This document shows positions 116-13,376 of a stretch of DNA of 16,208 bases, piece by piece. Under the pieces are notes generated by a model. The model was not told the origin of the DNA. It ran no database searches and saw only the letters and a list, made by a program, of their open reading frames with translations. Each line of letters begins with the position of its first letter. Positions within the stretch are counted from its first letter, which is position 1. The stretch is taken from IMG/VR virus record IMGVR_UViG_2778261227_000006; one strand, 5' to 3'. Source of the DNA: a virus. Lineage: Duplodnaviria > Heunggongvirae > Uroviricota > Caudoviricetes. The translations under genes and the position numbers were made by a program.

Positions 116-469
116 TCAGCGGCGACGGTTAACGGCAGGCGGTACGCCCCGCCCAAGCCAGAGATGACAGCTTCCGCCATCATCCGGCGAAATCCGGTCT
201 ATCCAGAAGTTTTCCTCACCGATGGTCAGCGTGTCGCCGCGCCGCAGCTGCCGCACATCATCAGTCCGGACAAACAGGGACGGGCTGGAGCCTTCAACGC
301 GCACGCCCTGTCCGGCATAGCTGATATTTTCAGGGTCATCAAAAACACCACGTATCACAGCACCGGACTGCTCACCGGATGTCATGGTGGCTGACGTTCC
401 CATGTACCCGCGTATCGTTTCATCGGCGCGGGCAATGGCAGCATCGAACAGGTTATCGAAATCAGCCAC
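116..469 (-). CDS. FII: Head-tail connector protein FII (117 aa)
   Basis: ORF-track protein MADFDNLFDAAIARADETIRGYMG...HLWLGRGVPPAVNRRR is near-identical to lambda gpFII as recalled; start codon here reads GTG (plus cac at 467-469) preceded by GGGAGG Shine-Dalgarno; follows FI stop by 11 nt. Confidence 0.9.
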   Translation of the reverse strand: MADFDNLFDAAIARADETIRGYMGTSATMTSGEQSGAVIRGVFDDPENISYAGQGVRVEGSSPSLFVRTDDVRQLRRGDTLTIGEENFWIDRISPDDGGSCHLWLGRGVPPAVNRRR

Positions 470-917: not shown

Positions 918-1943
918 TTACGCCAGTTGTACGGACACGAACGCATCAGGGTCAGCCAGCAGCATCAGCGGTGCTGACTGAATCATGGTGAACTCACGCG
1001 CCGGATCGCCAGTGGTCACCCAGTTTTTCGGGTAGCGGGCAGAGGCGTTAATACCTTCGCGCTGTGCGTCCGCATCCTGAATGCAGCCATAGGTGCGCAG
1101 ACCGCGTGCCTGAGTGTTCCCCAGCACCATCGTGTTGTCCGGCAGGAAGTTCTTTTTGACGTCGTTTTCCACGTACTGTCCGGAATACACGACGATCGCC
1201 GTATCGCCATACATCCCCTTATAGGACACCGCTTCGCCCAGGTCTTTTACCGCTGTCTCCAGCTCGGAATGAGAGCCGCGACGGGTATCCAGCTTCTCCT
1301 TGACGGCTTTGAAGGAACGGAACAGCGCCCAGCCTTTCGGATCAAACACGATGATATTCACCACACCGCTGGCGTTCAGCGCGTAGGCTTCGATATCGTC
1401 GGTCGGGTCATACGTGGACTTGTCACGCTTGCTCCACTCCGTACCGCCGGACTGCGTGATGTTGTTCGCCACACTGCGGCCCATATCCACTTCAACCGGA
1501 TCGAAGGCTTCACCGGTCATGGTATATTTGCCCTTAAGCACGGCAGAAACGGCCTGCATCTCTTCGACCTGAGCAATGGCCAGCTCTTCGTCTCGCATGT
1601 TCTGCAGGATGATGCGACGGCGGCGGTAAGCCGGGTCCGCCAGATTCTGTGGATCTTCATCCGGCAGGCGACGCAGGGTCATCTGCGGATTCACCTCATG
1701 CTTCGGCTTGACATATCCCGGTGTAAATTCAGAGGTGGAGCCGCCACGGGAGCGGATAACCTCACCGGAAACAATCGGCGAAACGTACAGCGCCATGTTT
1801 ACCAGTCCCGGAATTTGTGAGAGATAGACTTTCTCCGTGGTGAAGGGATAGCTCTCACGGAAAAAGAGACGCAGAAACAGCGGATCAAACTTAAATTTCT
1901 TCTCATTTGCCGCCAGCAGCTGGGCGGTTGTGTACATCGACAT
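918..1943 (-). CDS. E: Major capsid protein E (341 aa)
   Basis: Protein MSMYTTAQLLAANE...DPDAFVSVQLA near-identical to lambda gpE; ATG at 1943..1941; the track start at 1970 is a GTG (plus cac) 9 codons upstream and is rejected. Confidence 0.93.
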   Translation of the reverse strand: MSMYTTAQLLAANEKKFKFDPLFLRLFFRESYPFTTEKVYLSQIPGLVNMALYVSPIVSGEVIRSRGGSTSEFTPGYVKPKHEVNPQMTLRRLPDEDPQNLADPAYRRRRIILQNMRDEELAIAQVEEMQAVSAVLKGKYTMTGEAFDPVEVDMGRSVANNITQSGGTEWSKRDKSTYDPTDDIEAYALNASGVVNIIVFDPKGWALFRSFKAVKEKLDTRRGSHSELETAVKDLGEAVSYKGMYGDTAIVVYSGQYVENDVKKNFLPDNTMVLGNTQARGLRTYGCIQDADAQREGINASARYPKNWVTTGDPAREFTMIQSAPLMLLADPDAFVSVQLA

Positions 1944-3660: not shown

Positions 3661-7341
<3,681 letters not shown>

Positions 7342-7367
<26 letters not shown>

Positions 7368-7887
7368 TCAGCAACCCCGGTATCAGTTCATCCAGCGCGG
7401 CTGCTTTGTTCATGGCTTTGATGATATCCCGTTTCAGGAAATCAACATGTCGGTTTTCCAGTTCCGGAAAACGCCGCTGCACCGACAGGGGGATCCCGTC
7501 GAGAATACTGGCAATTTCACCTGCGATCCGCGACAGCACGAAAGTACAGAATGCGGTTTCCACCACTTCAGCGGAGTCTCTGGCATTTTTCAGCTCCTGT
7601 GCGTCGGCCTGCGCACGCGTAAGTCGATGGCGTTCGTACTCAATAGTCCCTGGCTGGAGATCTGTCTCGCTGGCCTGCCGCAGTTCTTCAACTTCCCGGC
7701 GCAGCTTTTCGTTCTCAATTTCAGCATCCCTTTCGGCATACCATCTTATAACGGCGGCAGAGTCATAAAGCACCTCATTACCCTTGCCACCGCCTCGCAG
7801 AACGGGCATTCCCTGTTCCTGCCAGTTCTGAATGGTACGGATACTCGCACCGAAAATGTCAGCCAGCTGCTTTTTGTTGACTTCCAT
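7342..7887 (-). CDS. Nu1: Terminase small subunit Nu1 (181 aa)
   Basis: Protein MEVNKKQLADIFGASIRTIQNWQEQGMPVLRGGGKGNEVLYDSAAVIRWYAERD... matches lambda gpNu1 (winged-helix N-terminus); ATG at 7887..7885; cosB lies immediately upstream. Confidence 0.95.
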
Positions 7888-8064
7888 TGTTCATTCCACG
7901 GCCAAAAACAGAGAAAGGAAACGACAGAGGCCCAAAAGCTCGTTTTCAGCACCTGTCGTTTCCTTTCTTTTCAGGGGGTATTTTAAATAAAAACATTAAG
8001 TTACGACGAAGAAGAACGGAAATGCCTTAAACCGGAAAATTTTCATAAATAGCGAAAACCCGCG
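7888..8064 (-). other. cosB region (terminase small-subunit binding region between cosN and Nu1)
   Basis: Reverse complement of this stretch matches the left-end sequence of lambda as I recall it (GGGCGGCGACCTCGCGGGTTTTCGCTATTTATGAAAATTTTCCGGTTTAAGGCGTTTCCGTTCTTCTTCGTC...). Confidence 0.85.
7912..8024. repeat. Three copies of the cosB R element (gpNu1 binding sites)
   Basis: AGAAAGGAAACGACAG at 7912-7927 and its exact reverse complement CTGTCGTTTCCTTTCT at 7954-7969 (16-bp perfect inverted repeat, 26-bp spacer); a related copy AGAACGGAAATG at 8013-8024. Confidence 0.75.
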
Positions 8065-8076
8065 AGGTCGCCGCCC
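8065..8076. other. cosN cohesive-end sequence (12-nt overhang of the mature genome)
   Basis: Plus strand aggtcgccgccc is the reverse complement of GGGCGGCGACCT, the lambda 12-nt cohesive end; flanked on the right by cgtaacctgtcggatcgccgg, matching the lambda right end (cosQ side). Confidence 0.85.
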
Positions 8077-8109
8077 CGTAACCTGTCGGATCGCCGGAAA
8101 GGACCCGCA

Positions 8110-8275
8110 AAATGATAATAATTATCATCTGCATGTCACAACGTGCATCTACGCCATCAAACCACGTCAAATAATCAATTATGACGCAGATATCGTATTA
8201 ATTGATCTGCATCAACTTAACGTAAAAACAACTTCAGACAATACAAATCAGCGACACTGAATACGGGACAACCTC
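8110..8275 (+). promoter_or_regulatory. Putative promoter/operator region of the ynfO-ydfO cassette
   Basis: 17-bp perfect palindrome ATGATAATAATTATCAT at 8112-8128; ATCTGCAT motif at 8127-8134 and 8205-8212 with inverted copy GCAGAT at 8186-8191; AT-rich; -35/-10 not confidently placed. Confidence 0.35.
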
Positions 8276-8509
8276 ATGTCAACGAAGAACAGAACCCGCA
8301 GAACAACAACCCGCAACATCCGCTTTCCTAACCAAATGATTGAACAAATTAACATCGCTCTTGAGCAAAAAGGGTCCGGGAATTTCTCAGCCTGGGTCAT
8401 TGAAGCCTGCCGCCGGAGACTGTGCTCAGAAAAAAGAGTTTCTTCTGAAGCAAACAAAGAAAAGAGTGACATTACTGAATTGCTCAGAAAACAGGTCAGA
8501 CCAGATTGA
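8276..8509 (+). CDS. ynfO: Small protein with ribbon-helix-helix-like N-terminus (YnfO/YlcI-like, 77 aa)
   Basis: ATG at 8276, TGA at 8507-8509; MSTKNRTRRTTTRNIRFPNQMIEQINIALEQKGSGNFSAWVIEACRRRL... matches my recollection of K-12 Qin YnfO; RHH-like strand-helix-turn-helix pattern. Confidence 0.7.
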   Translation: MSTKNRTRRTTTRNIRFPNQMIEQINIALEQKGSGNFSAWVIEACRRRLCSEKRVSSEANKEKSDITELLRKQVRPD

Positions 8510-8566
8510 AGCAATTTAGATAATCGTGCAGACTACGCCCCCTCATATCACATGGAAGGTTTATCT

Positions 8567-8977
8567 ATGGATCAGGTAGTCATTTTTAAACAAATATTTG
8601 ATAAAGTTCGAAACGATTTAAACTATCAATGGTTTTATTCTGAGCTAAAACGTCACAATGTCTCACATTACATTTACTATTTAGCCACAGAGAATGTTCA
8701 TATTGTATTAAAAAATGATAATACAGTGTTATTAAAGGGCCTAAAAAACATTGTGTCTGTCAAATTTTCAAAGGATAGGCATCTTATAGAAACGACCTCT
8801 AATAAGCTGAAATCCAGAGAGATCACATTTCAGGAATACAGAAGAAACCTTGCTAAAGCAGGAGTTTTTCGGTGGGTTACAAATATCCACGAACAAAAAA
8901 GATATTACTATACCTTTGATAATTCATTACTATTTACTGAAAGCATCCAGAAAACTACACAGATCTTACCACGCTAA
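8567..8977 (+). CDS. ydfO: DUF1398-type protein (YdfO/YbcV-like, 136 aa from second ATG; alternative ATG at 8552)
   Basis: [40 protein letters not shown]... matches my recollection of YdfO/YbcV; GGAAGG SD 7 nt upstream of ATG 8567; stop TAA at 8975-8977. Confidence 0.75.
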
Positions 8978-9770: not shown

Positions 9771-9975
9771 TCATTTTCACTTTTTTAAATCCAACGACAG
9801 ACGGCTGGCATTTAAGTATTGTGAAATATTATCAAATGTAATCATCATTGATTTACAAAAGATACATTTTGCCCCGAAAGGATTCATGTCAGAAACATCA
9901 AAAGATGATGTTCTATACTGGGAACCATGACAACACGGGCATCTAAAGTGAATATGGTTTGTAATATTGTCTACC

Positions 9976-10188
9976 TCAAAGCGCCACTACATGAACAGCG
10001 GCAGGACCTTTAGGTCCGTTCTCAATATCAAATTCAACTTCCTGATTCTCAGTTAATGTTTTGAAATCGTTGCTCTGAATTGCTGAGAAATGGACAAACA
10101 CATCTTTGCTGCCATCTTTCGGCGTGATGAAACCAAAACCTTTTTCAGGGTTAAACCATTTCACTAAACCAGTCATTTTGTTAGACAT
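9976..10188 (-). CDS. cspI: Cold-shock protein, CspA family (70 aa, CspI-like)
   Basis: [70 protein letters not shown] with the KGFGFI and VFVHF RNP motifs; ATG at 10188..10186; long AT-rich 5' leader upstream. Confidence 0.9.
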
Positions 10189-10551
10189 AATTATTACCTT
10201 TTGAAGAAATTAGCCCTTGGGCAGAATGGTCCGAAAAAAAATATCAGAGAGAAAAACCAACAAGGAAATCTCAAGAGGTACAAATAATAAAATTATAACA
10301 ATGACTGCTTCAGATAAATTTGTAACAAACCAGAACACCATTAACGCATGATTAACCACCCATAGCAAGGATTACTTTTGTAAAGAAAAACACAGCAATG
10401 AAAGAATAGCTTTATTTATTAATAATAACGTGTCATTCTGATTAAGACCTTTTATCTTACCCTTAAGATTTCAGGAATTTTGGCTCATGGAAGAGTCCTT
10501 TTTATTTAAATTTTACATTCCGCGATGTAAATGTTCCGATTTAATATTACC

Positions 10552-12580: not shown

Positions 12581-12860
12581 AGATTGTGGTGCTTTTTGTG
12601 GGAGTCATCCACTTACGCACTTTGTTTTGCCATGCCAGCAGTTAGCTTCTGCTGTAAAACTATTCATGCAGCAAACCTGCACTTCACCACAATGGTTAGC
12701 ATACTTTTCCTGATTAAGATTTTGCCAAATATGCTAGCCATTGTTTCATGTATTGGACCTCCTTACTTTTTATTAAAGAGATCCAATATTCACTACTCTG
12801 TCCGTATCTCTACTCAGGCATCAGCCTTCTTCGTTATCGTATACAGACGAGCGATGAATT

Positions 12861-13076
12861 TTAATCAGTAATGATGACATTTGCTGCTGCAGGACCTTTA
12901 GCACCACTCTCTATAGAGAAGGTAACCTTTTGACCTTCAAATAAGGTTCGATAATTATCATTCTGAATCGCAGAAAAATGCACAAACACATCTTTACTAC
13001 CATCAACAGGAGAAATAAAGCCGAAACCTTTATCAGCGTTAAACCATTTTACTAAACCAGTCATTTTATTTGACAT
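12861..13076 (-). CDS. cspB: Cold-shock protein, CspA family (71 aa, CspB-like)
   Basis: [71 protein letters not shown]; ATG at 13076..13074; TAA at 12861-12863. Confidence 0.9.
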
Positions 13077-13376
13077 TCTACATTCCTTAACTTGAGCCTT
13101 TCGGCATAAATGGTTTGCATAACAGAAACGACTTCGTACTTAATTGGAGAGACTCAAAGAAGGAATAAGTGAATAACACCTGAAATGAGAACTGCTTTAG
13201 TAAACTACTTCGTATATCGTCTGTTCTTCAAACCGACGCAATCATTAACGCATAGTTGAACATATGAAGCAATGTTTATTTTAGACATCCAGCCATCTTC
13301 AACCCCATCAAAAAACTATAGCTTTCTTCAGGAACGTGTGTATAGTGCGCCAAGTTATCAGTATTAAGGAATTTTT

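Follow-up and report, generated by a model that had tools for sequence, protein, structure and literature searches.

Fur-binding sites are on record in two prophages of Escherichia coli K-12, upstream of nohA in Qin and of nohB/nohD in DLP12 (Stojiljkovic, 1994; Vassinova and Kozyrev, 2000; Chen et al., 2007). At Qin, two overlapping sites of 22.3 bits (at 1634624) and 12.6 bits (at 1634630) were found by a scan of the K-12 genome, 6 bp apart and 233 bp upstream of nohA, and an oligonucleotide carrying the nohA site was gel-shifted by Fur at 150 nM; the nohB site of DLP12 was listed at 25.3 bits with reference to a Fur titration assay of 1994 (Chen et al., 2007; PMC2189734). That study, which describes the 7-1-7 and overlapping-dimer models of Fur binding with citation of Baichoo and Helmann, counted nohA among the "potential Fur-controlled promoters." The words phage, prophage and lambda are absent from it, so nohA was not linked to cos.

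We analyzed a stretch of 16,208 nucleotides from a tailed phage of the Caudoviricetes (IMG/VR record IMGVR_UViG_2778261227_000006), referred to here as the window, which is a lambda-like prophage lying in the orientation opposite to the lambda map. Its best phage match is PhiR42_1 (99.5%), the right and left ends of lambda match it at approximately 95%, and the segment is present in 4514 of 5426 complete E. coli genomes. The prophages that carry the Qin and DLP12 Fur sites are decayed, whereas the window retains complete Nu1, A and portal genes: the terminase small subunit Nu1 lies at 7342–7887 on the minus strand (Phage_Nu1, E = 2.4e-101), and terminase A at 5442–7367 on the same strand, with the portal gene next. 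The cohesive-end sequence of cosN, GGGCGGCGACCT, occupies 8065–8076 (minus strand) and corresponds to the lambda left cohesive end, while cosQ, GGGTCCT as annotated in the phage 434 record, occupies 8100–8106 (minus strand). Between Nu1 and cosN, the cosB region holds a 26-nt inverted repeat (7912–7937 and 7943–7968, 85% complementary) with GGAAACGACAG and CTGTCGTTTCC motifs, presumably the cosB R sites for terminase. On the far side of cos from Nu1, a DUF3950 gene of the ynfO/ylcI family (8276–8509, plus strand; PF13132, E = 2.7e-21) is transcribed away from cos and is followed by a DUF1398 gene (8552–8977, plus strand) and by cold-shock cargo. Two full-length Rfam matches to the cspA thermoregulator, at 12845–13237 and 9949–10334 on the minus strand (158.8 and 112.6 bits), are the 5′ leaders of these prophage cold-shock genes, a cargo like cspI and cspB of Qin.

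The original prediction had pointed to a perfect 17-bp palindrome, ATGATAATAATTATCAT, at 8112–8128, and the palindrome is indeed there, with 8-1-8 symmetry around A8120. Its core, TGATAAT-A-ATTATCA (8113–8127, centered on 8120), agrees with all 14 specified positions of the 7-1-7 Fur motif TGATAATnATTATCA and has no mismatch to TGATAATNATTATCA, which at up to three mismatches is found four times in the window against 0.71 expected; the stretch at 8108–8126 matches the classical 19-bp Fur consensus GATAATGATAATCATTATC at 16 of 19 positions, a score that no match reached in 200 shuffles of the window. A second, weaker 7-1-7 site, TAATTATCATCTGCA (8119–8133), overlaps the first and is shifted 6 bp away from cos, scoring 9/14 here and 12/14 in the family consensus. 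The extended conserved block AAATGATAATAATTATCATCTGCAT (8110–8134) comprises the full Fur box, including the first of two copies of ATCTGCAT. The IHF consensus WATCAANNNNTTR has no match in the palindrome region, its only match in the window being at 8591–8603, and an Rfam scan of the window returned nothing for that region, its only matches being the two thermoregulators.

The likeness to the known sites is close. The distance from the Nu1 start to the box center is 233 bp (7887 + 233 = 8120, the central A), and in present K-12 coordinates the center of the Qin palindrome is likewise at the nohA start + 233, an offset common to the orthologous Qin and DLP12 sites. The DLP12 box is identical to the window over 8112–8128, and the Qin and lambda boxes differ from it only at position −8, at the unspecified center and at +12; the 7-1-7 core is thus the same in all three prophages save for the unspecified central base in Qin, and the overlapping sites are 6 bp apart as in the window. 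Because the offset is shared and the sequence is near-identical to the Qin, DLP12 and lambda boxes, the palindrome can be regarded as the orthologue of an experimentally bound Fur site; it is itself very probably bound by Fur, and we infer that this copy acts as its orthologues do. The site is a re-discovery in so far as its Qin and DLP12 copies have been on Fur target lists since 1994–2007.

What surrounds the palindrome is less distinctive than the description "dense palindromes" had implied. The copies of ATCTGCAT at 8127–8134 and 8205–8212 and the inverted pair GCAGAT (8186–8191) and ATCTGC (8205–8210), with its 13-nt spacer, were all correctly located. Among first-order Markov surrogates of the 102-nt region, however, an 8-1-8 palindrome occurs in only 0.7%, whereas a direct repeat of at least 8 nt occurs in 30% and 6-nt inverted arms no more than 20 nt apart in 58%; shuffling of the whole window gave ATCTGCAT twice in 35 of 200 trials. 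In the aligned lambda, Qin and DLP12 sequences, ATCTACAT stands in place of the first ATCTGCAT and GCAGGT in place of GCAGAT; neither the repeat nor the inverted pair is therefore kept even in the closest relatives. The dense palindromes therefore reduce to one significant palindrome in ordinary AT-rich background, and the proposal that the repeat and the GCAGAT pair are further operator elements is not borne out, with the exception of the first ATCTGCAT, which by its position in the motif forms the far end of the extended Fur box and would be a half-site for the second dimer. The second copy (8205–8212, plus strand), which pairs with GCAGAT at 8186–8191, is at chance level and lies within the ynfO 5′ region. 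That region, 8135–8275, is specific to ynfO and moves with the lambda-type ynfO/ylcI gene. It also holds an imperfect inverted repeat, ATCAATTATGACG at 8174–8186 and CGTATTAATTGAT at 8194–8206, with a perfect 8-bp core ATCAATTA...TAATTGAT; the repeat at 8174–8206 is invariant among lambda, Qin and DLP12, and the alignment is thus uninformative on it.

To place the palindrome among other phages, IMG/VR and a set of genomes with one per species were scanned for the cosN...cosQ pattern, and 61 unique flanks to the right of real cos sites were obtained. A 7-1-7 match of at least 12/14 lies within 32 nt of cosQ in 42 of these flanks, compared with 0.27% of random windows. Clustered by the sequence past the box, the flanks form 40 distinct contexts with the box and approximately 15 real cos contexts without it; about 70% of the distinct lambda-type cos contexts sampled carry it. 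In every box-bearing flank the box starts 3–7 nt after cosQ, and the box-bearing contexts include a lineage in which the cosN-cosQ spacer is entirely different. An alignment of 48 unique contexts on their center gives the consensus AAATGATAATRATTATCATTTRCAT over −10 to +14, whose reverse complement matches GATAATGATAATCATTATC at 17/19 positions; the central base varies (A/G), and information content is approximately zero beyond +14. In the same way, alignment of mosaic relatives, namely one Stx1 phage plus two prophages whose cosB and Nu1 are of another type, shows homology that spans cosN, cosQ and the palindrome and ends within a few bases past the latter. The motif search in related lambdoid right ends that had been suggested thus recovers the palindrome, conserved beside cosQ, and finds the ATCTGCAT repeat and the GCAGAT pair altered.

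Among individual phages, the lambda box occupies 48452–48466, directly against cosQ (48473–48479), and a box also stands beside cosQ in phage 434; the score is perfect in phi80, 12/14 in phage 21 and 11/14 in N15, and Gifsy-1 has none. In phi80 and N15 the neighboring gene, gp59, runs toward cos and has its end at the box or within it, which leaves no divergent gene to regulate there. Elsewhere the neighbors are an Rz-like DUF2514 spanin gene, which ends approximately 30 nt short of it, genes of SIR2-like and ClpP-like type, and assorted cargo. Most of the matches listed in the host-range scan are chance ones in GC-rich genomes; the real ones listed are all from Enterobacteriaceae, and among these the box is found in Citrobacter, Kluyvera, Phytobacter, Superficieibacter and Kosakonia and is absent in Trabulsiella. 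By this distribution the box belongs with cos and not with ynfO, and such a distribution speaks for selection that keeps Fur binding at exactly this place next to cosQ. The location on the cosQ side of cos, already remarked in the original prediction, is thus both correct and meaningful: a consensus Fur box stands against cosQ in lambda, phi80 and 21, and more weakly in N15, and it stays while the flank beyond it is exchanged. The literature searched contains no published link between Fur and lambdoid cos; the Fur site itself was already known, and it is its conserved linkage to cosQ that seems to have gone unremarked there.

Loci of other kinds were also seen. Six satellite-like (PICI-like) loci carry two inverted cosN-cosQ copies (L010, L019, L022, L049, L072, and L077), with an intrinsic terminator or unrelated sequence after cosQ instead of a Fur box. 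In L010 the copies, at 317–355 (minus strand) and 1091–1128 (plus strand), are separated by approximately 750 bp, with a 144-aa helix-turn-helix gene (TerS/Rpp-like) between them, and lambda E-like capsid genes lie beside them. Lambda right-end DNA that begins at the cohesive end is found at contig ends in L163 (a Chromatiales MAG), L172 (Oceanobacillus profundus) and L215 (a Pseudomonadales MAG), and a short contig of a "Nanosynbacter" MAG (L222) has an E. coli prophage-like cos; these four matches are likely to be lambda spike-in or contamination of public assemblies.

Occupancy of such a box in vivo is recorded for strain CFT073. ChIP-exo peak P53 (1424699–1424711, iron-replete), beside a transcription unit labeled nohD (supplements of the Fur pan-regulon study of Gao et al., 2023), falls on the box TGATAATTATTCTCG at 1424693–1424707, which lies 6 bp from the cosQ sequence GGGTCCT (1424714–1424720), upstream of the terminase small subunit, and is identical in sequence to that of phage 21 (12/14). 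For the K-12 strains, the same listing contains no ChIP-exo peak labeled nohA, nohQ, nohD, ynfO or ylcI; near-duplicate copies in Qin and DLP12 may block unique read mapping. An iron-uptake-related gene adjoins the Fur site in this phage-21-type prophage: L250 455–781 (plus strand), equivalent to CFT073 1423654–1423980, codes for a 108-aa protein whose sole domain is a TonB C-terminal one (PF03544, E = 7e-13); the gene lies approximately 700 bp from the Fur-bound box and is transcribed toward cos, and it is also seen at L007 2301–2627 (minus strand).

How Fur at this place might act on the phage is a separate question, and what is at stake is whether iron status feeds into terminase expression or packaging. 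At sufficient iron, two Fur-Fe2+ dimers would bind the overlapping sites 8113–8127 and 8119–8133 and cover approximately 8110–8134. The box stands at the upstream edge of the cos-Nu1-A block, for late transcription and DNA packaging alike, and bound Fur could there form an iron-dependent block on RNA polymerase, halting transcription that originates from weak promoters nearby or that runs on into cos and the terminase genes, and perhaps also transcription departing toward ynfO; iron limitation would relieve the block. Gating of transcription as the job of the box is a tentative reading, to which we give a little less than an even chance. The statement that combines both parts, a Fur box that gates transcription into cos-Nu1-A, we hold to be evenly balanced between true and false.

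Expression data from fur deletion strains bear on this proposal. In CFT073, units on both sides of peak P53 are listed as derepressed, with log2 changes in the Fur regulon list of +2.95 for C_RS26755, +2.33 for C_RS07340 and +2.13 for C_RS07370, and the terminase large subunit C_RS07355 rises by log2 +1.34. Derepression that includes the terminase lends weak support to an iron-dependent transcription block at the entrance to the packaging genes, although loss of fur may itself induce the prophage in part and so raise terminase transcripts indirectly. In MG1655, nohQ, nohD and ydfO are unchanged. In W3110, neighboring genes fall (ynfO −5.1, ydfO −2.0, ybcV −3.7) at low read counts. As a separate observation on that strain, the drop extends to five Qin and DLP12 genes, orthologous to window 8276–8977 (ynfO, ydfO, ylcI, ybcW and ybcV, 4- to 30-fold, low counts; unchanged in MG1655), and the mutant shows broad changes, for example appY at −4.1. 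Both an effect of the box on transcription and a gain to the phage from it are presumed.

The box was also considered as part of a promoter. A sigma-70-like site directed toward cos and Nu1 is present in the window at 8112–8139 (minus strand), with a −35 of GTGACA (8139–8134), a 16-nt spacer and a −10 of TATCAT (8117–8112) inside the box. It matches at 10/12 positions and is not conserved in relatives, and no sigma-70-like site was found at the CFT073 box when one was looked for. Sites of this kind overlap the box in 7 of 35 contexts, compared with 6.8 ± 2.5 when the distal flank is shuffled; with this lack of enrichment and the loss of information past +14, a conserved promoter overlapping the box was rejected. 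The sequence TTGCA that often follows the box was likewise set aside as a −35 element, as no matching −10 was seen by eye and it is better explained as a half-site of the second 7-1-7 motif. Control of divergent cargo genes was rejected as well, the neighbors being heterogeneous and often converging on cos. No conserved promoter, then, accounts for the pattern of box and cosQ.

Three other readings of the locus have to be weighed against a transcription gate. The original prediction favored operator sites for a dimeric regulator, possibly the adjacent YnfO (DUF3950) acting as a small autoregulator. The region does lie 150 bp upstream of ynfO, the YnfO sequence (RNIRFP, helix, GSGN, helix) and the helices at 19–32 and 34–73 of its AlphaFold model are compatible with a ribbon-helix-helix protein, which YnfO may be, and the 8-bp inverted repeat ATCAATTA...TAATTGAT (8174–8205) in the ynfO-specific 5′ region could be an operator; but the model is of low confidence (pLDDT 65.5), and a PDB sequence search with YnfO returned no related solved structure. 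The box and the gene also come apart, since the palindrome stands beside cosQ in many phages without a ynfO neighbor (phi80, N15 and the DUF2514 phages), and in BP-4795 the approximately 40 bp upstream of the DUF3950 gene are unrelated and contain no such box, which rules out YnfO as the general ligand. With the palindrome equal to the Fur consensus, its orthologue bound by Fur, and the ATCTGCAT repeat and GCAGAT/ATCTGC pair at chance level and different in lambda, Qin and DLP12, we consider YnfO operators very improbable; a dimeric regulator was a sound expectation, the candidate being the host's Fur and not YnfO, and the palindrome and not the repeats. A Fur-binding box might, alternatively, have no present phage function, being kept inside a conserved cos block that serves as a recombination junction between modules, or might bring an indirect benefit, for example if replicating genomes titrate Fur. 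The homology breakpoints at its distal edge, the absent or inconsistent expression effects in K-12 and the approximately 15 real cos contexts without the box are what such a reading would lead one to expect. Against it, 12–14 of the 14 Fur-specific positions are kept where the cosN-cosQ spacer has changed at most positions, a distance over which hitch-hiking would not keep a palindrome, and the unspecified central base varies between A and G as expected under selection for Fur binding; we regard it as quite unlikely.

The third reading gives the box a role in packaging, with Fur beside cosQ serving as an accessory cos subsite that, like the IHF site I1 in cosB, aids the translocating terminase through a pause or bend in recognizing cosQ and cosN as packaging ends, or that organizes or protects the right end. 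The right DNA end is packaged last and injected first, and in the virion it lies approximately 37 bp from the box. Terminase arriving from the ynfO side would pass the Fur box, then cosQ 6 bp on, and then cosN, and downstream cos cutting to end packaging is known from the packaging literature to require cosQ. The conserved adjacency of 3–7 bp to cosQ strengthens the packaging caveat of the original prediction: it is seen in 40 contexts, even where the cosN-cosQ spacer is fully diverged, and the block common to the mosaic relatives is cosN, cosQ and the box with nothing further, whatever the cosB and Nu1 type. No promoter is conserved with the box, and in phi80 and N15 it is squeezed in between the stop codon of the last gene and cosQ, or overlaps that stop codon. 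The extent given to cosQ/R4 differs by record: in phi80, "cosQ; aka R4 region" (L251 13–67, equivalent to JX871397.1 46084–46138) is 55 bp long and includes the Fur box, whereas R4 of phage 21 (L253 361–372, M81255.1) is a 12-bp stretch at cosQ and the 434 record has a 7-bp cosQ. Genetic work by Wieczorek and Feiss in 2001 is said to have delimited cosQ to 7 bp, which would leave the box outside. Also speaking against this role, cosQ occurs without the box in Gifsy-1 and in satellite-like loci where a terminator follows cosQ, and helper terminase is known from published work to package PICIs whose cos sites have a lambda-like cosQ and cosN, elements to which our box-less loci may correspond; the spacing between cosQ and box varies by 4 bp, a poor fit to a fixed protein-protein contact; and a Keio screen for lambda host requirements did not report fur. 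The cos fragments used by the Feiss laboratory (lambda 48446–182) contain the box and would mask any contribution from it, packaging papers on cos in the literature searched do not mention a Fur box, and Fur papers treat the sites as promoters, so that a role of this sort may have escaped attention. An accessory role is conceivable given how strictly the box adjoins cosQ, given that no promoter is conserved with it and given the example of IHF in cosB, but we judge it unlikely; if true, it would couple the maturation of phage DNA, or how efficiently the phage infects, to host iron status.

With transcription gating into cos-Nu1-A as the reading that we tentatively prefer, the box can be compared with three kinds of known system. 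It shares with classical Fur operators, such as those of fepA-fes, fhuA and ryhB, both the consensus and the overlapping 7-1-7, two-dimer architecture, but those operators overlap a defined −10 or −35, whereas at the cos box no promoter is conserved. The classical operators are 30- to 600-fold derepressed in fur mutants (fepA, log2 +6.6 to +9.2), while the effects around the cos box are log2 +1.3 to +2.9 in CFT073, absent in MG1655 and of opposite sign in W3110. Compared with the cosQ or "R4 region" of lambda-like phages, the box is contiguous with it and is counted within it in the phi80 record, but the phage 434 and 21 records draw it more narrowly, and at some cos sites cosQ is found with no box beside it. 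Site I1 for IHF, in cosB of lambda and 21, is like the box a consensus site for an abundant host protein at a fixed place at cos, and both are kept across phages of different packaging specificities. IHF has been described as taking part in the assembly of terminase at cosB, whereas a packaging role for Fur is not reported in the literature searched, and the box lies outside the 7-bp cosQ, whereas I1 lies inside cosB.
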